Part shown: piece after piece, positions 27,738 to 53,353 of the stretch | Layout of the letters: each line of letters opens with the position of its first letter | Numbering within the stretch: position 1 is the stretch's first letter | DNA from: Candidatus Curtissbacteria bacterium RIFCSPLOWO2_12_FULL_41_16 | GTDB lineage: Bacteria > Patescibacteriota > Microgenomatia > Curtissbacterales > GWA2-41-24 | Assembly: GCA_001776545.1 (NCBI GenBank) | Contig: MFBZ01000002.1 | Location: forward strand, 1-56,105 | DNA length: 56,105 bases | Reading direction: 5' to 3' | Made by a program: the position numbers and the translations under genes | The notes under the pieces: model-generated | Database searches by the model: none | Told to the model about the DNA's origin: nothing | The model's input: the letters and a program-made list of their open reading frames with translations, nothing else

Positions 27738-28596
27738 AAAAACCCTGAAACTCCTTCGAAGAAGTCCTTATCAGGCGCTTGCTGCGGCCCTGGCCATGAC
27801 CCTGACATTTTTCGTCGCCTCCATCTTCGTTATTCTGGTTATCGGTGGGCAAATCGTTCTAAATTACATTGAACAGCGTCCGCAGATTGTCGCCTTTTTT
27901 AAAGATGATGCCAGCCAGTCTCAAATTCGTCAAATAGAAGAACAGATAAAAGCGACCGGTTTAACCCGCGAAGTCAAGTATGTCACCAAAGAAGAGGCTT
28001 TAGCGATTTATCGCGAGAGAAACAAAGACGAGCCGCTGCTTTTGGAATCTGTCTCTAGCGATTTTCTGCCGGCTTCGCTTGATATTTCAGTAAAACGCGC
28101 TCAGGATATCGCCCAAATTACCCAAATCGTCAAAAGTAATCAAAAGGTCGAGAAAGTAGTTACCCCCGAAAATTTAGTCGAACAACTGGTCAAGTGGACA
28201 AAAACGATTCGCCTTGGGGGAATTGTTTTTATCTCTACGCTTCTTAGCGTTTCCTTCCTTATTATAATAATGGTCATCGGCATGAGAATTGCCCTGCGTC
28301 GCGATGAAATTTCTATTATGAGTTTAGTGGGCGCCACCCGTTGGTATATCGCGAGGCCTTTCTTTTTGGAGGGTGCGCTTTACGGTCTTGTCGGCGCCAC
28401 CATTGCCTCCTTTCTAATTTATGCCTTTCTCCTTTATTATTCCCCGAATATTCAGGAATTTTTGGGACCGATCCAGGTTTTTCCAATTTCGCCGCGTTTC
28501 TTTATTTATCTTTGGGCAGGCGAAGCGGCGACTGCCGCGGCAGTCGGCATTATCGGGGCAGCAATTGCCCTGTTTCGTTATCTTAAAATTAGATAA
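27724..28596 (+). CDS. ftsX: cell division permease-like protein FtsX
   Basis: 290 aa. One TM, an extracytoplasmic domain, then three C-terminal TMs. Overlaps ftsE by 14 nt. Confidence 0.88.
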   Translation: MTQIKKTLKLLRRSPYQALAAALAMTLTFFVASIFVILVIGGQIVLNYIEQRPQIVAFFKDDASQSQIRQIEEQIKATGLTREVKYVTKEEALAIYRERNKDEPLLLESVSSDFLPASLDISVKRAQDIAQITQIVKSNQKVEKVVTPENLVEQLVKWTKTIRLGGIVFISTLLSVSFLIIIMVIGMRIALRRDEISIMSLVGATRWYIARPFFLEGALYGLVGATIASFLIYAFLLYYSPNIQEFLGPIQVFPISPRFFIYLWAGEAATAAAVGIIGAAIALFRYLKIR

Positions 28597-28606
28597 TATT
28601 AAGATT

Positions 28607-29743
28607 ATGACTAAATACTTCCTGCCCAAGGTTGTGGCGTCTGCCCTAATCTCCTGTTTGGTTTTCTTGTTACCCCTCGCAGTATTTGCCCAGTCAGACA
28701 TTGATCGTTATCAGGAGATTCAAAAGAAGATAGCCGAAACTCAAGCCAAAATTGAAGAACTCCAAAAAACTGAAAGGGATCTTGCCACCCAGATCACCTA
28801 CATCAACAGCCAGATCAAATTGACCGAACTTAAAATAGAAGAAGCTCAGGCTACAATCGACCAGCTAGAGAAAGAGATTAATGTTTTGGGTTTCAGAATC
28901 GGCTACATCACCGATTCGCTATCCCGACTTGAAACTCTTCTAAAACAGCGAATCGTGGCTACTTACCAGCAGAGTTTTATCACGAATCTTGAGCTGATGC
29001 TTACCTCACACGATTTTTCCGATCTTATCCTGCGTCTTCAGTACATCAAACAAGTTCAGGAAAACGATAAAAAACTTCTTAGTAACTTACAGCAAACAAA
29101 AGCCAATTATGCCAATCAAAAAGACGAGCGTGAAGAAAAACAAACCAAAATCGAAACCGCCAAGAAGCAACTGGACACAAGCGTAGTGCTTTTGGCCAAG
29201 CAAAAGAAAGAAAAAGACGATTTCTTGACGTTAACCAAAAACGATGAAAGCAGATATCAGGAAGAATTAAGACGCCTCCAGGCAGACGCCGCTTCTATCT
29301 CGCAGGCACTCGGCAATATTGGCGCCAAAATCGGCACAGTAGGAAAAGGTGACATCATCGCTTCGGTCGGCTCCAGTGGTTGTTCAACCGGTCCCCATTT
29401 GCATTTTGAAGTTTTCACAGGTGCCAAAGTAGAAGGTGGCAAGATTATCGGCAGTCGTGTTGACCCTAAGCCTTATCTTGAGGATGCAAAATATCAAAAG
29501 CCGATCCCTAATTATCCCCAAAATGTCACCACCTGGTACGGCGAAACTTACTTTTTAGGAGTCCATACCGGCATTGATATTGCCGATCCTTTTGGCACGC
29601 CAATTCGAGCAATTGATGGGGGAGAAGCCTACTTTACCTCTGCTCCTTGTAGTTATAATATTCCTGGCGGAACTCCGCTCGGTAAAGGCATCGTCGTTGA
29701 CCACAAAAACGGCCTGGTTACCCTCTACTGGCACATTCCATAA
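28607..29743 (+). CDS. coiled-coil M23 (LytM-type) metallopeptidase, apparently circularly permuted catalytic domain
   Basis: Signal peptide MTKYFLPKVVASALISCLVFLLPLAVFA and a ~220-aa coiled coil. GSSGCSTGPHLHFEV lies upstream of HTGIDIADPFGTPI...VTLYWHI. The ORF-track start 28421 overlaps ftsX and is rejected. Confidence 0.85.
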   Translation: MTKYFLPKVVASALISCLVFLLPLAVFAQSDIDRYQEIQKKIAETQAKIEELQKTERDLATQITYINSQIKLTELKIEEAQATIDQLEKEINVLGFRIGYITDSLSRLETLLKQRIVATYQQSFITNLELMLTSHDFSDLILRLQYIKQVQENDKKLLSNLQQTKANYANQKDEREEKQTKIETAKKQLDTSVVLLAKQKKEKDDFLTLTKNDESRYQEELRRLQADAASISQALGNIGAKIGTVGKGDIIASVGSSGCSTGPHLHFEVFTGAKVEGGKIIGSRVDPKPYLEDAKYQKPIPNYPQNVTTWYGETYFLGVHTGIDIADPFGTPIRAIDGGEAYFTSAPCSYNIPGGTPLGKGIVVDHKNGLVTLYWHIP

Positions 29744-29752
29744 ATACGAGTA

Positions 29753-29816
29753 ACTACGAGGTCCGACCTGGTAATTGCCTGGTAATTGTAACAACCCCCA
29801 AAAGGGGTCGGACCCC
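29753..29816. repeat. REP-like hairpins with GGTC-S-GACC core plus a CCTGGTAATTG direct repeat
   Basis: ACTACGAGGTCCGACCTGG (29753-29771), CCTGGTAATTG x2 (29767-29788) and GGGGTCGGACCCC (29804-29816). Confidence 0.75.
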
Positions 29817-29913
29817 TAGCAATGATTTACACACCAGGTGTGTTTTACGTTTACACATCGGGATATTTTTTAATCATTGACAAAACCTAGCGAACTCTTT
29901 ATTTTTTGAGCTA

Positions 29914-30780
29914 GTGCCCAAAAAAGTTGTCTATCTTTTTGCTCTTATTTTCTTTCTACTTTTTCATCCGTCAGCCTTTGCCGCAACTGTAGTTATCAAT
30001 GAATTTTTAGCCAACCAATCATCAGGTCAAGATGAATGGGTCGAATTTTACAATCCAGACCACCTTGATTTGGCTGAATACTGGATAGATGATGATACTG
30101 ATTTCGGCAGTGATTCAGGCAACAGTTCTAAAAAACAATTAACCGCCGTCAGCTTAAATGTTGCCAATTCGACATTTCCTTACGTTACCTTGAGTTCTTT
30201 AATGTTTAACGATACTTGCAGTTCTTCTTGCGATTATGTTGTTTTATTTTCTGCGGATGGCTCAATAATTGACCAGTTTCAATATACTTCAGAAATGATT
30301 GAACAAGAAGGCAAAACAATCGGTCGTTCACCAGATGGTACAGGGGATATGGTGATTTTAGCTTCCATGACCCAAGGAGCACCCAACAGTCAAGCTGAGC
30401 CTTCGCCCTCATCAATCCCAACCCCCACACCCACGCCTGCCCCAACCCCTACCCCCACCCCTACCAAATCTCCAACTCCTACTCCTAAAACCACCCCAAC
30501 ATCAATTTTGACAAAATCGCCGTCACCCACACCCAAAAATTCTCCTGCGGTTTTAGGAGAAACCCAAGATAGCTTGCAATCTCCAACCGAAGAATCTACC
30601 CCAAGTCCATCCGCAAATCCAACCAGTACATCACCTTCCAAAACCAAAATAGCAGCAATACTTACCGGCTCTGGAGCAATCTTGATTGGGTTCTCTGTCG
30701 GATTTTACTTATGGTATAACAAGGTCCTGGCCAGGAAAGAAGAAGATCAAAATCAGCCTGATGAAAAAGAATCAAACTAG
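29914..30780 (+). CDS. lamin-tail-domain (LTD) surface protein with PT-rich linker and C-terminal TM anchor
   Basis: 288 aa, GTG start, signal peptide. LTD motif VVINEFLANQSSGQDEWVEFYNP, PTPTPTPAPTPTPTPT linker, hydrophobic C-terminus followed by a basic stretch. Confidence 0.7.
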   Translation: MPKKVVYLFALIFFLLFHPSAFAATVVINEFLANQSSGQDEWVEFYNPDHLDLAEYWIDDDTDFGSDSGNSSKKQLTAVSLNVANSTFPYVTLSSLMFNDTCSSSCDYVVLFSADGSIIDQFQYTSEMIEQEGKTIGRSPDGTGDMVILASMTQGAPNSQAEPSPSSIPTPTPTPAPTPTPTPTKSPTPTPKTTPTSILTKSPSPTPKNSPAVLGETQDSLQSPTEESTPSPSANPTSTSPSKTKIAAILTGSGAILIGFSVGFYLWYNKVLARKEEDQNQPDEKESN

Positions 30781-31141
30781 CGCCATTTTAGGTAGGTGGC
30801 CGCCTGTTTTTTTATGGGCGGCAGTTATTTTTGTTTTTTCCTCAATAGAGCAGGTTCAAGTCAGCCAGTTTTTTATTTGGGATTTTGTCGCCAAGAAAAT
30901 TGCCCATGTTACAGAATATGCGATATTTTTTGCCTTGTTATTTCGCGCGACAAACGGCAGATGGCTCTCGTCTTTTTTTCTGACAATACTCTACGCGTGC
31001 TCGGACGAATTTCATCAAAGCTTTGTCCCCGGCAGAACAGCCAGCCCCCTGGATTTGGGTTTTGATCTGTCCGGTGCTAATATAGCAAGCTATATAATAT
31101 GGAAGCTAAAACAACTTCGCCCCGGCAAACCCAAAAAATAG
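30761..31141 (+). CDS. VanZ-family membrane protein
   Basis: MKKNQTSAILG start at ATG 30761. HVTEYAIFFALLF...DEFHQSFVPGRTASPLD is typical of VanZ. Confidence 0.75.
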   Translation: MKKNQTSAILGRWPPVFLWAAVIFVFSSIEQVQVSQFFIWDFVAKKIAHVTEYAIFFALLFRATNGRWLSSFFLTILYACSDEFHQSFVPGRTASPLDLGFDLSGANIASYIIWKLKQLRPGKPKK

Positions 31142-31527
31142 CCCAAGAACTAGGAAAAACCTTAAAAAGCGGTGAGGTCATTGCCTTATACGGAGATTTA
31201 GGTGTCGGCAAAACAGTTTTCGTCCAGGGTTTAGCCCACGGCCTCGGCATTAAAAGAAGAATTCTCTCTCCGACATTTGTTTTCATGCGCTCTTACCCGC
31301 TTATCTTAAAAGGTAAACCTCTCACTTTCTATCATTTGGATCTTTACAGAGGACAAAGCATGCAGGATTTCAAGGCTCTTGGCCTTGATGAAATTTTCGA
31401 GGAAAATTCGATAGTCGTTTTGGAATGGGCCAATAAGATTAAAAACATTCTTCCCAAAAAACGAATCGATGTTTTTCTCAAGATAATCGACGAAAAAACC
31501 AGAGCAATCGAGATTAAAAAGTATTAA
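31099..31527 (+). CDS. tsaE: tRNA t6A37 biosynthesis ATPase TsaE
   Basis: 142 aa with LYGDLGVGKTVFVQG and FYHLDLYR. Confidence 0.88.
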   Translation: MEAKTTSPRQTQKIAQELGKTLKSGEVIALYGDLGVGKTVFVQGLAHGLGIKRRILSPTFVFMRSYPLILKGKPLTFYHLDLYRGQSMQDFKALGLDEIFEENSIVVLEWANKIKNILPKKRIDVFLKIIDEKTRAIEIKKY

Positions 31528-31576
31528 CACAAATTTTAGCCATGGTGTGATTTTGTGTTAAGTTTATAAATATCCT

Positions 31577-32146
31577 ATGGCAATAAGTAGCATAAAAAAA
31601 GCAGCAGCGATACTCAAAAATGGGGGAGTCGTCATTTTTCCGACCGACACCGTCTATGGCCTCGGTTGTCGTTTTGATAACCGGAATGCGCTCGATCGCA
31701 TTTATCGAATCAAGGGCACGCCCAAAACTCAGCCTTTTCCGATTCTGGTTTCCGCTGCCTCCCAAGTTGAAAAACTCGCTAACCTCAATGACGTTGCCCA
31801 AAAACTCATCGAAAAATACTGGCCGGGTGCTTTAACCATTGTCCTCCCCGGCTTGTCTACCAGTTCCAAACCGGGTTTGAATGCGGAAAAAATCGGTTTT
31901 CGTATGCCTGATTCTAGTCTTGTTCAATCACTTATCGAAAAAGTCGGTGTTCCGCTAATCGGTACTTCCGCAAACTTCCATGGCCACCCTGCTTCAAAAA
32001 CTTACCAAGATCTGGATCCGGACTTTGTTAAACTCGCAGATTTTACAATTAAAGGTAAATGCACTTTTGGTATAGAATCAACAGTTATAGATGCCACAAG
32101 TGATCCTTCCAGGATCTTGAGGAAAGGAGCCATCTCACTACGATGA
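31577..32146 (+). CDS. tsaC: L-threonylcarbamoyladenylate synthase (YrdC/TsaC type)
   Basis: 189 aa with GGVVIFPTDTVYGLGC, PILV, GTSAN. Confidence 0.88.
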   Translation: MAISSIKKAAAILKNGGVVIFPTDTVYGLGCRFDNRNALDRIYRIKGTPKTQPFPILVSAASQVEKLANLNDVAQKLIEKYWPGALTIVLPGLSTSSKPGLNAEKIGFRMPDSSLVQSLIEKVGVPLIGTSANFHGHPASKTYQDLDPDFVKLADFTIKGKCTFGIESTVIDATSDPSRILRKGAISLR

Positions 32147-32176
32147 TACGTATCATCGTAGTAAAAATAATTAAAG

Positions 32177-32503
32177 ATGATTTTAAAAATTGATACAACC
32201 AAAAGAGAAGAAGCCACGGTCGAGCTCAAAGATCCTAAAACCGGTAAAGCGGATAAACTAATCCAAAAACAAAAACTCGGCTCGCAAGTTCTTTTGCCAA
32301 TGATTGTCAAAATCTTAAAGAAAAACAAAGTGGATTTTAGCGATCTTTCGGCAATCGAAGTTAACCCCGGTCCGGGATCTTTTACCGGTACTCGCGTTGG
32401 AGTTGCCGTTGCCAACGCTCTCGGTTTTGCCTTAGACTTACCAGTAAATGGTCAAAAGGGTAAAATAGTTGTGCCCATATACGAAAAGTCAAAATTCGAT
32501 TAG
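32177..32503 (+). CDS. tsaB: TsaB-like protein, N-terminal half only
   Basis: 108 aa with the TsaB/YeaZ motif AIEVNPGPGSFTGTRVGVAVANALGFAL. It ends about where full-length TsaB continues for more than 100 further residues. Confidence 0.6.
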   Translation: MILKIDTTKREEATVELKDPKTGKADKLIQKQKLGSQVLLPMIVKILKKNKVDFSDLSAIEVNPGPGSFTGTRVGVAVANALGFALDLPVNGQKGKIVVPIYEKSKFD

Positions 32504-32514
32504 TCCACCAGTGT

Positions 32515-32549
32515 CACCTCCGAGGTGGGCTTTGACTCCTCGGAGGTGG
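32515..32549. repeat. 35-nt palindromic element (CACCTCCGAGGTG-GGCTTTGA-CTCCTCGGAGGTGG)
   Basis: 11-bp arms CACCTCCGAGG/CCTCGGAGGTG with a 12-nt loop. It lies 11 nt after the tsaB stop and is related to copies at 18866, 19030, 38177 and 53295. Confidence 0.85.
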
Positions 32550-32561
32550 AATAATTAGGCT

Positions 32562-33479
32562 ATGAGTAAAATCTTAGTCACCGGCGGAGCCGGTTTCATC
32601 GGATCATATGTCACAAAGTTACTTGCCGATTCCGGTCACAAAGTTGTCGTCTTGGATAACCTCTCTCACGGATTTGCCGAAAATATCGATCGTCGCGCAA
32701 AGTTTATTGCCGGTGACATTAAGGACAAGAACAAAACTAAAAAGGCACTGGAGGGGGTTGACGCAATTATCCACTTAGCCGGTTTAATCGTCGTCCCGGA
32801 ATCAGTCAGCGACCCGATTAAATACGCCGATAACAATGTTCTTGGCACAATCAATCTTCTCAATTGCGCCAATGAAACGGGTTGCAAAAAAATTATTTTC
32901 TCATCATCTGCCTGTGTTTATGGCACAGCGGATAAATTACCAATCACAGAAGATGCACCCGTCCGTCCGGACAATCCTTATGGGGCAACTAAAGCATCAA
33001 TTGAAGCGTTTTTACAAAGTTATCATGCGAACTTTGGTTTTGATGTCACAATTTTGCGCTACTTCAACCCTTACGGCCCCGGCAAATTGTATCCGCCGAT
33101 AACCCATGCCGTTCCCAATTTTGTAATGGCAACTTTGGCTAAAAAGCCCATCCCTCTTTATTGGCAGGGGAAGCAAATACGCGATTTTATTTATATTGAA
33201 GATTTAGCCCGTGCCCATATCGATGTTCTGAAATTGTCAGGTTTTAACGTTTTTAACATCGGCACCCAAAAGGGGATTAAGGTCAAAGATGTAGTTGACG
33301 AGATCTTTAAGATCGCAGGTTACAAAGTTCCCATAAATGATCTTGGCGCGCGCCCAGGCGACGTCCCCGCCAGCTTTGCCTCAAGCGCCAAACTGGCAAA
33401 AGCTGTCGGCTGGCGGGCCAAAGTCTCCCTCCCCGAAGGCCTCCGCCGCACCATCGACTACTACAGACAAAACCACTAA
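32562..33479 (+). CDS. NAD-dependent epimerase (UDP-glucose 4-epimerase-like)
   Basis: 305 aa with GGAGFIGS Rossmann motif and catalytic YGATK. Confidence 0.85.
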   Translation: MSKILVTGGAGFIGSYVTKLLADSGHKVVVLDNLSHGFAENIDRRAKFIAGDIKDKNKTKKALEGVDAIIHLAGLIVVPESVSDPIKYADNNVLGTINLLNCANETGCKKIIFSSSACVYGTADKLPITEDAPVRPDNPYGATKASIEAFLQSYHANFGFDVTILRYFNPYGPGKLYPPITHAVPNFVMATLAKKPIPLYWQGKQIRDFIYIEDLARAHIDVLKLSGFNVFNIGTQKGIKVKDVVDEIFKIAGYKVPINDLGARPGDVPASFASSAKLAKAVGWRAKVSLPEGLRRTIDYYRQNH

Positions 33480-33562
33480 CCAGATCCGCCTCCATAAAGG
33501 CACACCAAGTGACCCTTCTTGACCAAACCGCCTAGTCCTTCCGCTACACATTTTAAGCAACG

Positions 33563-34309
33563 AACTACGAGGTCCGACCTCGCAGTTACAGTAGTATAAT
33601 CAGATCATGCCTTCCAAACACTCAGTTAAATTATACATTGAGAACGGGATCTACCATGTTTACAACCGTGGTGTTGAAAAAAGAACTATCTTTCAAGATC
33701 ACGACTACAAAGTCTTCCTTCACTATTTGAAGCGCTATTTATCTGAGCCAAACAACGAGGTCGGACCTCGTTGGAAACTTCGGTGGAACCAAGGCCTCCA
33801 CGAGAAGTTGCATTTAATGGCATATTGCTTGATGCCGAATCATTTTCATCTGTTACTTAAACAGTTTTCAAAAGAAGCAATAACTACTCTCATGCGATGT
33901 CTTTCGAATTCGTACACCAAATATTTCAACGAAAAATATGATCGAGTAGGCCCCCTCTTCCAGGGGAAATTTAAGGCTGTTTTAGTTGAAAATGATAATT
34001 ATCTTTTGCACTTGACACGCTACATCCACCTGAATCCTATCAACCATCGAGAAAGTACTACGAGGTCCGACCTCGTAGTACTGGCAAAATTCAATTACTC
34101 AAGCTACGCCGATTACTTAGGAAAAAGGCATACTCAGTGGCTTAATGTTAAAGAGGTATTAAATTACTTCAATAACCCTACATCTCTCAATATCTATAAG
34201 AAACATTCGTATAAAGAATTCGTAGAAGATTTTGCTATTGATTCCGGTTCCGCACTTCAGGAACTAGTGATTGAATAGTAGCTACGAGAACTACGAGGTC
34301 CGACCTCGT
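33563..34309 (+). mobile_element. REP-RAYT unit: IS200-like tyrosine transposase gene flanked by and containing REP hairpins
   Basis: Hairpins at 33563-33587 (upstream), 33753-33773 and 34054-34082 (within the CDS) and 34293-34309 (downstream). All share ACGAGGTC-S-GACCTCGT, with CTAC/GTAG next to the stem. Confidence 0.8.
33607..34278 (+). CDS. REP-associated tyrosine transposase (RAYT, IS200/Y1 HUH family)
   Basis: 223 aa with YHVYNRG, HUH motif MPNHFHLLLKQ and catalytic Tyr block HLTRYIHLNP. Confidence 0.85.
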   Translation: MPSKHSVKLYIENGIYHVYNRGVEKRTIFQDHDYKVFLHYLKRYLSEPNNEVGPRWKLRWNQGLHEKLHLMAYCLMPNHFHLLLKQFSKEAITTLMRCLSNSYTKYFNEKYDRVGPLFQGKFKAVLVENDNYLLHLTRYIHLNPINHRESTTRSDLVVLAKFNYSSYADYLGKRHTQWLNVKEVLNYFNNPTSLNIYKKHSYKEFVEDFAIDSGSALQELVIE

Positions 34310-34331
34310 TGAAAACTCAAATTCTTACCGC

Positions 34332-34360
34332 TTGACAACTTATAATTATTGCTATAAAAT
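34332..34360 (+). promoter_or_regulatory. sigma70-like promoter (TTGACA-17-TAAAAT)
   Basis: Hexamers at 34332-34337 and 34355-34360, upstream of the ATG at 34423. Confidence 0.5.
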
Positions 34361-34422
34361 GCGCAAACTAGCTCAGATTACTGCCTTTCTACTGCCAACT
34401 GCCTCACTTAATTTTTATAAAA

Positions 34423-35025
34423 ATGCAATTAAGAAAACTTATCTACCTTCTATCCATTTTAGTTACGGTTATTTCATTTGTGGCTATTCTAAAAGTCACC
34501 TACGCCACAAGCGTCACTATTAAGGACAACGCTGCCGGAAGCCAGAATCAAGTCAATGTAGAATCTTCTGATCAGACTAATATTAACCAGAGCAATCAGT
34601 CAAACGTCAACAACAACGTTGACGTCAATTGCAACTCGGGACAAAACAGCGCCAGCGGCAATACCGGCGGAAACGGGTCGATCAGTACCGGGGACTGTAG
34701 CGCCAACGTGGGCATTTCCAATAATCTAAACAACAATCAAGCCAATATTAATTGTCCAAATTGCCAAACACCGACCCCGACACCAAAACCCTCATTACCA
34801 ACTCCCACTCCAATATCTCTACCAGGTCAAGGTGGTGGGCCATCAGCTGGAGGTGATGAGGGAGCAGCCAGTGGACCGTCAGGCGAAGGTCAAGCCACCC
34901 AGCAGGTACTTGCTGCAGCCGGTGTTGCCCAGAACGCGCTTCTTTCTTCCATCGGATTTGGGCTGATCATTTTTGGTCTATGGCAAGCTCAAAACGCACT
35001 CGCAAAAAGAGCGCAAAGGGTCTAA
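34423..35025 (+). CDS. secreted single-module Asn/Gly-rich protein with PT linker, LAAAG motif, TM and basic tail (candidate sortase substrate)
   Basis: 200 aa with a signal peptide. Module NVNNNVDVNCNSGQNSASGNTGGNGSISTGDCSANVGISN. C-terminus VLAAAG...LLSSIGFGLIIFGLW...KRAQR. Immediately upstream of the sortase. Confidence 0.6.
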   Translation: MQLRKLIYLLSILVTVISFVAILKVTYATSVTIKDNAAGSQNQVNVESSDQTNINQSNQSNVNNNVDVNCNSGQNSASGNTGGNGSISTGDCSANVGISNNLNNNQANINCPNCQTPTPTPKPSLPTPTPISLPGQGGGPSAGGDEGAASGPSGEGQATQQVLAAAGVAQNALLSSIGFGLIIFGLWQAQNALAKRAQRV

Positions 35026-35561
35026 AATTTCCAGCTTATACCCGTCATTTTCTCAGCCTGTTTTTGATTATACTGGGGGCTGGGATTATGCTTTTTACTG
35101 CCATCAGCAAAAGCGCAGCCCAAGTTCTACCTCAAAACGAACCCCAGCAAACTCAATTCTTGGAAAAACCAGCAAAACTCTACATCCCGAGACTTGCCAA
35201 AATTCTCTATATTTCCGACGGTCAAGTAGTTGACAACCGCTGGACTATCTCCGAAACAGGGGTCTCCTATCTTACGACATCGGCAATTCCGGGCCAGGTT
35301 GGCAACAGTGTCATTTACGGCCACAATCGCAATGAAATTCTGGGAGATCTGCCTCAAGTCGTAGATGGCGATCCCATCTATGTAATTTTAGAAAGTGGTG
35401 ACTTTGTCAAATACCAAGTTGCCGAAACCAAAGTAATCCAGCCGTCCCAAGTCGAAATTTTAAATCAATCGGCAGATTCAAGACTAACGATTTACACCTG
35501 CACCGGCTTTTTAGATACTGCCCGATTTGTGGTTGTGGCCAGGCAAGTAGGTCTGATATAA
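34980..35561 (+). CDS. sortase (class uncertain)
   Basis: 193 aa with an N-terminal TM, His motif VIYGHN, catalytic Cys motif LTIYTCTG, and Arg in RFVVVAR. Confidence 0.85.
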   Translation: MASSKRTRKKSAKGLKFPAYTRHFLSLFLIILGAGIMLFTAISKSAAQVLPQNEPQQTQFLEKPAKLYIPRLAKILYISDGQVVDNRWTISETGVSYLTTSAIPGQVGNSVIYGHNRNEILGDLPQVVDGDPIYVILESGDFVKYQVAETKVIQPSQVEILNQSADSRLTIYTCTGFLDTARFVVVARQVGLI

Positions 35562-35570
35562 TGACTTTTA

Positions 35571-37163
35571 GTGAAAAAACTGCTCCCCGCCTTTCTCGCT
35601 TTTCTGCTAATCTTTTTTATCTCTCCTGTTTGGGCGCAAACGCCCCCATTTTCCGTCAACAACGCCAACCGAGTTCCTGGCCAAATTCTGGTTAAATTTA
35701 AAAGCGGGACTTCCCAGAGTTTTATCAACGAAAATCTAATCAGATTTAATGCCAGAATTGCCTCTCGGATTGAAAGATTAAACGTCTTAGCGCTTAATGT
35801 CCCAATTTCTCAAGAAGATGTTATAATTTCTGCCCTTTCCAAAATTCCCAGTGTCGAATTTGCCGAACCAGACTTTGTCGCCAAAGCCCTTACCGCAACT
35901 TCCGATCCGTCATTATCCAGCCAGTGGGGCATGTTTAAAGTTGTGGCAGCTGCCAATCCCGACCCCAGCGCTTGGAATATTACAATCGGCAGCGCAACTG
36001 CAAAAATTGCCGTTTTGGATACTGGTATCGATCAAGATCATGAAGATTTAGCTGCCAAAGTTGTCGCCAACCAAAACTTCACGTCAAGCCCAACCATTGA
36101 TGATCTCTATGGCCATGGTACCCATGTCGGCGGCATCGCTGCGGCCATTACCAATAACGCAACAGGAGTGGCCGGCCTTGGCTACAACTCCTCCCTGATG
36201 AACGTAAAGGTGCTGGACGATAGCGGTTCCGGTTATTATTCATGGATTGCCAATGGCATTATTTGGGCCACAGATAACGGTGCCAAAGTTATCAATATGA
36301 GTTTAGGCGGATCAAGCGGTTCGTCGACACTTCAAAACGCCGTTAATTACGCGGTCGCCAACGGGGTAGTTGTTGTGGCCGCAGCCGGCAATAGCGGCAA
36401 TTCGTCTCGAACCTATCCGGCCTATTATTCAAATGTCATCGCGACTGCTGCAACCGACTCAAATGACGTCAAAGCCGGTTGGTCAAGCTATGGCTCATGG
36501 GTAGATGTAGCCGCTCCCGGGGTTAACATCTATTCCACTTTCCCGAATCACCCGTATCAAATCAATAAGGCGCTAAGTTACGATTACGGTTCTGGAACTT
36601 CCATGGCCACGCCGCATGTTGCGGGTTTGGCTGCTCTTGTTTGGGCAACAGGAATTTGCGCAACCAACACCTGTGTCAGGGCACAAATTGAAAATAATGC
36701 CGATGCAATCACAGGCACTGGCACTTACTGGACTTATGGCCGCATCAATGCTTATAAATCAGTCGGCGGTACGTCGCCAAGTCCATCGCCATCGTCAACA
36801 CCTACTCCAACTCCCACACCCACTCCAACTCCAACACCGGTACCGGCGCTAACCATGCGTGTTTCCGATATTTCTATGTCGTATACAGCAATTTGGAAGT
36901 GGCGTAATGTTTACACCAAAGTCACGGTTTTGGACCAAAACAATAATCCCGTCTCTAGCGCCAATGTCTCACTTACAGTAACCCTACCATCCTCAAACAC
37001 AGCAACCAGTTCAGGATCAACAGGCAGCAATGGGACTATTACCTTCAAGGTAAGATCCAAAGAAACCGGCACTTACACATCAACCGTTATGGGCGTCACC
37101 AAGACAAACTATACTTACGATGCGGCAAGCTCCATCACAACTCAAACAGTGTTGGTCATTTGA
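35571..37163 (+). CDS. secreted subtilisin-like serine protease (S8) with I9-like propeptide, PT linker and C-terminal beta domain
   Basis: 530 aa, GTG start, signal peptide ending VWA. Catalytic triad blocks VLDTGID, HGTHVGG, GTSMATPHVAG. PSPSPSSTPTPTPTPTPTP linker. Confidence 0.92.
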   Translation: MKKLLPAFLAFLLIFFISPVWAQTPPFSVNNANRVPGQILVKFKSGTSQSFINENLIRFNARIASRIERLNVLALNVPISQEDVIISALSKIPSVEFAEPDFVAKALTATSDPSLSSQWGMFKVVAAANPDPSAWNITIGSATAKIAVLDTGIDQDHEDLAAKVVANQNFTSSPTIDDLYGHGTHVGGIAAAITNNATGVAGLGYNSSLMNVKVLDDSGSGYYSWIANGIIWATDNGAKVINMSLGGSSGSSTLQNAVNYAVANGVVVVAAAGNSGNSSRTYPAYYSNVIATAATDSNDVKAGWSSYGSWVDVAAPGVNIYSTFPNHPYQINKALSYDYGSGTSMATPHVAGLAALVWATGICATNTCVRAQIENNADAITGTGTYWTYGRINAYKSVGGTSPSPSPSSTPTPTPTPTPTPTPVPALTMRVSDISMSYTAIWKWRNVYTKVTVLDQNNNPVSSANVSLTVTLPSSNTATSSGSTGSNGTITFKVRSKETGTYTSTVMGVTKTNYTYDAASSITTQTVLVI

Positions 37164-38176: not shown

Positions 38177-38193
38177 TCCACCTCCGAGGTGGA
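38177..38193. repeat. single palindrome TCCACCTCCGAGGTGGA
   Basis: Perfect 8+1+8 palindrome of the CACCTC-S-GAGGTG family. Confidence 0.8.
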
Positions 38194-53126: not shown

Positions 53127-53142
53127 TCGGGAGGAAAAGGTT

Positions 53143-53238
53143 TTGAGGGTCGGACCCTCAAAAAAACTATAGCGACTGATCTTTTAAAGGGTCCGACCCT
53201 GAGGAAAAGTTTCTTGGCCTTTAAAAAGGTCCGACCTT
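53143..53238. repeat. cluster of three REP-like hairpins (GGTC-S-GACC core)
   Basis: TTGAGGGTCGGACCCTCAA (53143-53161), AGGGTCCGACCCT (53188-53200) and AAGGTCCGACCTT (53226-53238). GAGGAAAAG is repeated at 53131 and 53201. Confidence 0.8.
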
Positions 53239-53294: not shown

Positions 53295-53353
53295 CCACCT
53301 CCGAGGAGTCCCCTTCGACTTCGCTCAGGGCAAGCAAGCCCACCTCGGAGGTG
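53295..53353. repeat. palindromic element pair of the CACCTC-S-GAGGTG family
   Basis: CCACCTCCGAGG (53295-53306) and CACCTCGGAGGTG (53341-53353) are separated by 34 nt. Confidence 0.8.

Follow-up and report, generated by a model that had tools for sequence, protein, structure and literature searches.

Systems of repetitive extragenic palindromes (REPs) and REP-associated tyrosine transposases (RAYTs, or TnpAREP proteins) are the textbook case of a domesticated transposase with a dependent population of repeats, and the in vivo role of the enzyme is still unclear. Here we describe a gene of this type in a 56-kb contig stretch from the uncultured groundwater bacterium Candidatus Curtissbacteria bacterium RIFCSPLOWO2_12_FULL_41_16 (contig MFBZ01000002.1, positions 1 to 56,105; hereafter the window), which is bracketed by a short hairpin and carries two further copies of that hairpin in frame within its own coding sequence. 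A precedent exists in subclass 2.4 of the tnpAREP genes, where REPs lie in frame inside the gene without disturbing its reading frame (Quentin et al. 2018, PMC6006769). In the available sections of the same paper, class 2 TnpA-Y1 proteins are defined by the signature Y---NP, the combination NHFH, FQ, YIHLNP and SS marks subclass 2.1 (Bertels group 1; Table 1), and REP-like sequences are reported as not found for that subclass. Di Nocera et al. (2013, PMC3733652) described the motif GGGGWSAS in the terminal repeats of the TIRYT group, and also intragenic REPs that lie in frame in genes for repair proteins and tRNA synthetases. As far as those sections go, in-frame REPs in tnpAREP genes are already known from subclass 2.4 and are here extended to a new lineage; what is new is the subclass, the lineage, the insertion sites, and the fixed positions with a locus-specific sequence that tracks the flanks.

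The gene (33607-34278, forward strand) encodes a RAYT/TIRYT-type Y1 HUH protein of 223 amino acids. Its upstream hairpin, U, at 33563-33587 (AACTACGAGGTCCGACCTCGCAGTT) has a perfect core, CGAGGTCCGACCTCG, at 33568-33582, and the downstream hairpin, D (ACGAGGTCCGACCTCGT), occupies 34293-34309, with the stop codon 15 nt earlier. The first internal hairpin, I1 (33753-33773, CAACGAGGTCGGACCTCGTTG), is a perfect 10+1+10 palindrome that is translated as NNEVGPRW (amino acids 50-57) and falls in the loop that joins helix 33-45 to helix 55-61 of the protein. The second, I2 (34054-34082, AGTACTACGAGGTCCGACCTCGTAGTACT), is a perfect 14+1+14 palindrome that folds into 13 bp with a 3-nt loop, encodes STTRSDLVVL (amino acids 150-159), and lies in the linker directly following the catalytic-Tyr helix. 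A shared sequence, GAGGTCSGACCTC, has four matches in the window (33569, 33757, 34062 and 34295), all at the RAYT gene, where 0.00 are expected from 100 shuffles. As single-stranded DNA the hairpins fold with energies of -7.4 (U), -9.5 (I1), -13.2 (I2) and -6.4 (D) kcal/mol and z-scores between -2.7 and -6.6 (U -3.7; I2 -6.6), and as RNA I1 and I2 reach -13.3 and -21.7 kcal/mol. The most stable structure at the locus is the in-frame copy I2. An earlier preliminary description of this DNA had reported an intact gene bracketed by its own hairpin with two in-frame copies inside, and all of its coordinates and sequences for the gene and hairpins were reproduced.

Palindromes were searched for in 81 loci, namely the window and 80 fetched homologous loci from species-representative genomes (41-55% amino acid identity; these and further loci are given below as L numbers where they need to be told apart). 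Nearly every locus has a palindrome of its own, repeated within the locus at up to four fixed places. Examples are TTACAAAGG-TCCGT-CCTTTGTAA in L003, TGACAGGGCC-T-GGCCCTGTCA in L044, ATTGCAGGGTC-A-GACCCTGCAAT in L047, TGACAAGGG-GGG-CCCTTGTCA in L030, CTTGCAAGGA-CCA-TCCTTGCAAG in L076 and CCGGGAG-A-CTCCCGG in L079. The hairpin chosen for each locus was the one that maximised near-gene copies, so the layout counts and densities that follow are inflated. Hairpin centres fall at -15 to -60 nt from the ATG (site U) in 72 of the 81 loci, at +155 to +198 nt (I1) in 29, and at +420 to +510 nt (I2) in 43, while 60 loci have a copy just beyond the stop (D). At least one internal copy is present in 57 loci and all four sites are filled in 12; since 24 have no internal copy at all, the internal copies cannot be essential. 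With the proteins aligned, internal centres map, a few stray matches aside, to window-equivalent amino acids 51-59 and 146-158. Hairpin density is 1.5 per kb in the RAYT gene, 7 in its flanks and 0.037 elsewhere in the loci, which places the gene about 40-fold above the neighbouring DNA. A gene bracketed in this way by a palindromic repeat of its own has the arrangement of a REPtron. The preliminary description had proposed that REPs colonised this transposase gene; hairpins are indeed inside it, but the layout at two fixed loops is family-wide and does not reflect a recent event in one gene. Its further supposition that family members normally carry another segment after YIHLNP did not hold, as the 43 loci with a hairpin at that place indicate.

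In eight loci (L014, L018, L025, L038, L046, L052, L055 and L058) the upstream region or flanks contain two inverted hairpins separated by TTGAC(A) or a few bases, and these doublets form a larger palindrome that resembles a REPIN or a doublet of bacterial interspersed mosaic elements (BIMEs).

The internal hairpins resemble the hairpins beside their own gene. Over 21 nt, an internal hairpin and a flank hairpin of its own locus have a mean identity of 0.885, compared with 0.48 for hairpins that occupy the same position in different loci. In a cross-locus control that is free of the hairpin-choice bias, 44 of 73 loci (60%) carried the flank 17-mer within their own gene when up to two mismatches were allowed, compared with 73 of 5,767 cross-locus tests (1.3%). 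The mean perfect stem measures 7.25 bp at U, 6.8 at I1, 8.1 at I2 and 7.3 at D, and internal stems are as perfect as extragenic ones. The internal copies are live members of the hairpin population that track the flanks of their own locus.

If EV[GR]PRW and TRSDL were conserved protein motifs, the palindromes could be accidents of codon choice. These peptides do recur in many homologues, and RSDLV is loosely like the RAGMV of canonical relatives. However, other loci encode unrelated peptides at the same places (KGRTF, LGSDP, QGLPF, LQGPSLQ, VTGPGPV, LPGDSRQ and others), of which KGRTF, LGSDP, LQGPSLQ and VTGPGPV are translations of the locus's own flank hairpin, and across loci the internal hairpins occur in all three reading frames. 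The alternation of G and R is produced by the central base of the palindrome. Together with the 17-mer control, these observations effectively refute peptide-level conservation as the cause, and we regard it as scarcely credible. One palindrome of the family does argue the other way: the AT-rich TGTATTTTAATAAAAAATACA at about +331 to +371 lies over the conserved peptide YFNxKY (L024, L038, L042, L047, L049, L056 and L064) and is read as truly peptide-driven, in contrast with the hairpins that track the DNA.

Within the closest clade, which comprises the window, L136, L199, L201 and L202 (58-66% amino acid identity), the hairpins are orthologous in position and frame. The clade's I1 reads GAG GTC SGA CCT CGN, with G or C at the centre giving the G/R alternation in EV[GR]PRW. 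The I2 hairpin reads ACG AGG TCC GAC CTC in three genomes and ACC AGG TCS GAC CTG in L202 and L199, and relative to the window these two show compensatory, synonymous changes that agree with the arm of the hairpin (ACCAGGTC.GACCTGG) flanking the L202 gene. Because the hairpin differs between genomes yet matches within a locus, with compensatory synonymous changes, the copies evolve in concert at the level of DNA. The preliminary description had reckoned with orthologues that share the peptides without hairpin potential; instead, peptides and hairpin potential are kept together. When exchange of modules between paralogues at the hairpins was sought through discordance of per-module identity, none of 19,701 pairs stood out beyond |z| of about 4.3.

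In L199 the RAYT homologue (1990-2675) is frameshifted into open reading frames (ORFs) of 159 and 69 amino acids by an 8-nt tandem duplication (CTGGTGAA CTGGTGAA) directly 3' of I2, which has the identical form in two samples. This duplication may be a slippage mutation associated with the hairpin.

Both hairpin-bearing segments are insertions, because they add residues relative to proteobacterial relatives (19-23 in the I1 loop; 6 in the I2 linker of the window protein) and because P0094, a member from Patescibacteria that lacks the second internal hairpin, is of canonical length at that site. The alignment with canonical relatives that the preliminary description had proposed thus confirms its view of the two segments. 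This raises the explanation that the internal hairpins are inert passengers, left by old or repeated insertions in two permissive loops, whose likeness to the flanks would reflect only recent insertion. Both sites are variable loops, and in-frame insertion of REPs and Rickettsia palindromic elements (RPEs) into tolerant linkers is well documented (PMC3733652 and the available sections of PMC6006769). Some decay is also visible, as I1 of L201 has one synonymous mismatch and I1 of L202 is lost. Yet position, frame and length are preserved across a clade of 58-66% identity while the stems change with the flanks, as in the L202/L199 lineage, which follows its flank changes with no change in length or frame. 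Independent re-insertion would not keep position, frame and length, and the internal stems are not shorter than the extragenic ones. We consider inert passengers improbable.

On balance, we think it probable that the locus represents a REPtron- or TIRtron-like unit, belonging to a Patescibacteria (Microgenomates, Curtissbacteria-like) branch of subclass 2.1, in which the enzyme homogenises hairpins at four fixed sites. The Y1 HUH/Tyr enzyme would recognise short hairpins in single-stranded DNA, and its cognate hairpin would consist of a conserved AGG...CCT stem with a variable apex of 5-7 nt. Copies lie in the promoter region (near -35), in frame in a surface loop that precedes the HUH strand and in the post-Tyr linker, and just past the stop, the internal ones as insertions into loops that tolerate them. 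Cleave-and-rejoin or copy activity of the enzyme on extruded hairpins could seed and homogenise the copies, preferentially in cis beside its own gene, and short-tract gene conversion may help. Self-limited expression would be a plausible consequence, in that the upstream copy appears to overlap the -35 element or spacer and the strong hairpins inside the gene could serve as binding sites for the protein or hinder transcription or translation. Judged from the sequence, autoregulation by the hairpins, as the preliminary description suggested, would be a reasonable idea.

Several observations weigh against this reading. The inflation of the layout and density figures has been noted, and the internal copies are facultative. 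The NCBIfam RAYT equivalog NF047646 scores the window protein at 44.7 bits, under its cutoff of 80. The -35 element of the window is poor (GTCCGA), and a generic promoter scan made no call at the gene. Copy number outside the locus is low, as shown by the value of 0.037 per kb in neighbouring DNA. Finally, forms representing excision, a joint or an empty site were not seen in Logan metagenome contigs, a weak negative because such contigs drop rare variants; the extra Logan pieces recovered are paralogue matches at conserved motifs or short unitigs, with one 158-nt contig of low depth.

The hairpin also resides in other genes. A scan of 185,579 species genomes was made for an exact 17-mer, ACGAGGTCSGACCTCGT. 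High-GC genomes contain roughly the number of matches expected by chance (about 70 by our own estimate). The sequence is also frequent in Patescibacteria, where it occurs on 4-5 contigs of single genomes (e.g. CAYIDV01, CAYJUS01 and JBAZBL01), and around RAYT homologues of no more than 27-58% identity, Parcubacteria included, it recurs upstream, internally and downstream in the same arrangement. Among 93 copies in low-GC loci, 39 are in frame within long ORFs and are read as TRSDLV, RG[PR]TS or EV[GR]PR, so that in-frame residence is a general property of the element. Nine host ORFs were checked with Pfam and all are genuine genes (L091, L145, L131, L097, L156, L162, L159, L172 and L193). They encode ArgRS (arginyl-tRNA synthetase, with two tandem hairpin copies), LigA (NAD-dependent DNA ligase), GatB, UvrC, ComEC (two), an EPSP-synthase-family (PF00275) protein and two GT4 glycosyltransferases. 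Wherever the comparison can be made (LigA, UvrC and ComEC), the hairpin lies between Pfam domains. RPEs are longer, about 100-150 bp, with no known cognate transposase, whereas the element described here measures 15-30 nt and belongs with a Y1 enzyme gene in which it occurs four times. It is like the RPEs and intragenic REPs of Di Nocera et al. (2013) in that short palindromes lie in frame in functional genes, at linkers, and often in DNA repair and tRNA synthetase hosts, with ArgRS, LigA, UvrC, GatB and ComEC as the counterparts here.

In silico, the upstream hairpin lies in a putative promoter region. A TATAAT hexamer resembling a -10 element lies at 33595-33600 on the forward strand, read directly, 6 nt before the ATG, and it suggests that the transcript may be leaderless or nearly so. 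A sigma70-like promoter (at least 9 of 12 matches) with its -10 element ending 5-10 nt before the ATG, mostly 6, is found in 38 of the 81 loci, compared with 2.9% of shuffled upstream regions. The -35 element coincides in part with the upstream hairpin, or adjoins it, in 28 of the 38, and frequently consists of a TTGACA that is itself the left arm of the hairpin. In the window the U hairpin occupies the expected -35 position.

These overlaps fit the view that the internal hairpins are under selection for regulation. As operators, roadblocks or mRNA structures, the four copies would let the protein, or the structure itself, keep expression of the gene low, and selection, rather than homogenisation, would keep them matched to the specificity of the enzyme. 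The stability of I2, the perfection of the internal copies relative to the external ones, the compensatory synonymous changes and the roughly 40-fold enrichment in the gene over neighbouring DNA would all be consistent with such selection. On the other hand, the 24 loci that lack an internal copy and the mere 12 that fill all four sites are difficult to reconcile with it, loop orientation and reading frame vary, and the same hairpin is in frame in unrelated housekeeping genes where autoregulation would make no sense. Selected regulation is a possible but, in our judgement, unlikely explanation. A different kind of selection, for hairpins that are open in all six reading frames, was also considered and rejected: the window hairpin is open in all six, though the same is true of 47% of loci and 49% of arm-shuffled palindromes.

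The assignment of the protein that would homogenise the hairpins rests on both motifs and fold. The HUH motif NHFH is at amino acids 78-81 (33838-33849), the catalytic-Tyr motif YIHLNP at amino acids 139-144 (34021-34038), and the SS tail motif (YSSY) at amino acids 165-166, and the FQ motif is seen as LFQGKFK. Pfam identifies the protein as PF01797 (Y1_Tnp; E = 1.2e-8, 35.5 bits against a cutoff of 23). A sequence search of solved structures gave only a weak match in the HUH region, to ISDra2 TnpA (E = 0.01), and a fold search was therefore needed. An AlphaFold2 model built from 120 homologues (pLDDT 88, pTM 0.86) has as its top Foldseek match 4er8_A, the E. coli RAYT bound to a REP hairpin (E = 1.5e-7, TM 0.67 on the target), followed by IS608 and ISDra2 TnpA. 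The description of the ORF as an intact Y1 HUH protein of RAYT type is borne out by the Pfam and Foldseek results. An HUH motif with a single catalytic Tyr in Y---NP on a Y1_Tnp fold places the protein among RAYT/TnpAREP proteins in the broad sense (TnpA-Y1 class 2), and its motifs agree with the subclass 2.1/TIRYT pattern of NH[YF]H or NHVH, FQ or W[EQ], Y[IV]HLNP or YIELNP, and SS. It shares these motifs and 29-32% full-length identity with proteobacterial plasmid 'transposases' from Legionella, Iodobacter and Rhodospirillum. More than 7,900 homologues were found, and their named sources are nearly all Patescibacteria/Microgenomates (Curtissbacteria, Levybacteria and others), with one labelled Cloacimonadota. 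Within the RAYT/TIRYT group (subclass 2.1), the protein falls in a large branch from Patescibacteria. Many metagenome-assembled genome records that contain a gene of the Patescibacteria type are titled 'uncultured Gammaproteobacteria', 'Pseudomonadales' or 'Saccharibacteria' (e.g. L002, L016, L017 and L024); their low GC content and RAYT type suggest that these taxonomic labels are wrong.

The genomic context of the gene bears on whether the unit is instead an active insertion sequence of the IS200/IS605 type, with the flanking copies serving as its left and right end hairpins. The window has one RAYT copy, at the end of a gene series (31099-34278) that runs tsaE-like, Sua5/YrdC, TsaD-like, NAD-dependent epimerase and RAYT. 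The order tsaE-sua5-tsaD-epimerase-RAYT is kept in L201 629-3660 (Curtissbacteria MAG JBBDZN01), where the RAYT is 64% identical in amino acid sequence. Genomes contain several paralogues, which are divergent and have different hairpins. The single window copy, the conserved gene order and the divergent paralogues with differing hairpins are the behaviour of a RAYT and not of an insertion sequence. A Y1 fold with subterminal hairpins on both sides and the presence of several divergent paralogues per genome could accommodate an active element. But the catalytic motif is YIHLNP (class 2, Y---NP) and not the Y---Q of IS200 transposases, there is a single copy in 56 kb, the chromosomal context is unchanged in a genome at only 64% amino acid identity, and the paralogues within a genome are not near-identical. 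The protein, at 223 amino acids, single and syntenic, also departs from the IS200/IS605 TnpA pattern (subclass 1.1) of Y---Q, a core of about 150 amino acids only, and near-identical copies. An active insertion sequence is very improbable.

The best structural match, the E. coli TnpAREP protein (subclass 2.2; 4ER8), agrees with the window protein in its HUH motif and single catalytic Tyr in Y---NP, and its gene is likewise flanked by cognate hairpins, present in a single copy and held in a conserved chromosomal context. Sequence identity is only about 14%, and the equivalog score below the NCBIfam cutoff and the absence of an unpaired 5' GT[AG]G guide at the hairpins set the window gene apart from subclass 2.2. 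High-copy BIME arrays were likewise not seen here, and the E. coli gene has no internal copies. The preliminary description had noted that the stems are flanked by CTAC/GTAG, reminiscent of the GTAG of E. coli REPs. Of the five ACGAGG-type copies, four do have CTAC on their left side and only one has an exact GTAG on its right. The right-hand tetranucleotides of the four locus copies are GCAG, GTTG, GTAG and GTTG, and that of the fifth ACGAGG-type copy is GGTA. These bases are paired stem positions, confined to the window locus, and not an unpaired 5' foot, so that the likeness to E. coli is superficial.

The hairpins instead follow a rule of their own. A centred AGG-N5/7-CCT is present in 64 of 72 locus hairpins, with variable apex and lower stem, and the window hairpin, GAGG-TCSGA-CCTC, obeys it. 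With this rule and with the flanks of the 17-mer varying freely, membership among the GTAG-type REPs was rejected. In the proteobacterial relatives the flanking inverted repeats contain GGGGTCAGA or GGGTCAGG, and in R. rubrum the repeat is a palindrome, GGGGTCWGACCCC, that matches GGGGWSAS and is located at about -46 and directly after the stop. The sequences GGTCSGACC, GGGGTCGGACCCC (29804-29816 in the window) and AGGGTCAGACCCT (L014 and L047) resemble GGGGTCAG, as expected of flanking repeats of the GGGGWSAS type; the window copies fit the motif approximately, with G and not A at position 7. Because the flanking repeats of proteobacterial relatives carry GGGGWSAS, in palindromic form in R. 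rubrum, the hairpin core appears to be a palindromic form of this TIRYT motif and not a REP of the GTAG type.

With the TIRYT group or subclass 2.1 (TIRtrons; PMC3733652 and the available sections of PMC6006769), the window gene thus has in common the motifs NH[YF]H, FQ, Y[IV]HLNP and SS and the bracketing of the gene, at similar distances, by repeats containing a GGGGTCAGA-like sequence (GGGGWSAS). The low copy number of the flanking repeats recalls Bertels group 1, for which Bertels reports about 12 genome-wide occurrences of flanking 16-mers. The differences are that every copy here is a self-complementary hairpin rather than one arm of a terminal inverted repeat, and that two copies are in frame in loops that the proteobacterial members lack. 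In addition, the window protein stops at amino acid 223, while proteobacterial members extend further, and no C-terminal helix-turn-helix domain (Bac_DnaA_C, HTH_23 or HTH_28-like) was detected in it, as Pfam at E <= 0.1 returns PF01797 only. The Patescibacteria are also a lineage that goes unmentioned in the available sections of Quentin et al. (PMC6006769).

Subclass 2.4 (Bertels group 4), as presented in those sections of PMC6006769, resembles the window gene in having flanking REPs as well as REPs inside its own reading frame, which stays intact, and in the location of the insertions in peripheral variable regions. Its motifs are WQ and YIxNNP, rather than FQ and YIHLNP, and its REP is a GT[AG]G 'double foot' element rather than AGG-N5/7-CCT. 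One insertion here precedes the HUH motif and one follows the Tyr, and the gene is not a member of subclass 2.4, even though it works alike. Fixed positions with a locus-specific, flank-matching sequence are not described for subclass 2.4 in the same sections. Among the papers that searches of full-text literature listed, none connects REP/RAYT systems with Patescibacteria or the candidate phyla radiation.

Related hairpins are present elsewhere in the window. The core GGTCSGACC has nine matches (29760, 29806, 33571, 33759, 34064, 34297, 53148, 53190 and 53228), compared with 0.17 expected and at most 2 in any shuffle, in accord with the preliminary count of nine in 56 kb where less than one is expected. 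Five of these copies lie between genes, away from the RAYT locus, and their outer stems differ while remaining self-complementary. They form a pair at 29754-29816, CTACGAGGTCCGACCTGGTA (29754-29773) and the GGGGTCGGACCCC copy mentioned above, between the ORFs 28421-29743 and 29914-30780, and a cluster of three at 53141-53238, TTTTGAGGGTCGGACCCTCAAAA (53141-53163), AGGGTCCGACCCT (53188-53200) and AAGGTCCGACCTT (53226-53238), between divergent ORFs. With these five copies and the occurrences in other genomes, the hairpin family is dispersed beyond the gene with different outer stems, as had been proposed.

Other structures are present in the window as well. At 32137-32162 a perfect 13+13 palindrome, ACTACGATGATAC/GTATCATCGTAGT, shares bases with the end of ORF 31577-32146 and is upstream of ORF 32177-32503. 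It folds as DNA with -9.8 kcal/mol (z = -6.8); its outer stem, ACTACGA/TCGTAGT, is as in I2 and its apex is unrelated. A second palindromic family, CACCTCSGAGGTG, is found at 38177-38193 (TCCACCTCCGAGGTGGA at 38177), and two related copies, at 53296-53307 and 53341-53353, adjoin the 53141-53238 cluster. A different RAYT paralogue, encoded beyond the window, may have this family as its cognate site. Directly after D, and ahead of ORF 34423-35025, is a near-consensus promoter, TTGACA-17-TAAAAT, at 34332-34360; about 40 nt here show a depth spike in metagenome contigs, which indicates that the stretch recurs in related genomes. A role for D as an intrinsic terminator was rejected, as there is no T-run after the hairpin and the scan made no call. 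A search for known RNA families gave none in 29000-36000 at E <= 1.

A stronger form of the idea that the enzyme homogenises the hairpins would treat the four-hairpin layout as a functional design. The enzyme would continually rewrite all copies, those in its own reading frame and those in housekeeping genes, and the promoter and in-frame copies would tie enzyme level to hairpin integrity. We hold this to be speculative and doubtful; if it is true, the Patescibacteria RAYTs would be a Y1 system that edits coding sequence in place.

The family offers a natural experiment, in which a short cognate site occupies four fixed places and dozens of variants are each matched within their locus. Comparison of these variants makes the recognition determinants readable as a conserved AGG/CCT stem and a variable apex. 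The poorly understood TIRYT group, with its GGGGWSAS repeats, is now linked to REPs of the hairpin type. For annotation, the recurrent peptides TRSDLV, RG[PR]TS and EV[GR]PR in these phyla are translated repeats and not protein motifs, and the small, gene-dense genomes of Patescibacteria carry RPE-like palindromes in frame in essential genes such as those for ArgRS, LigA, UvrC and GatB.

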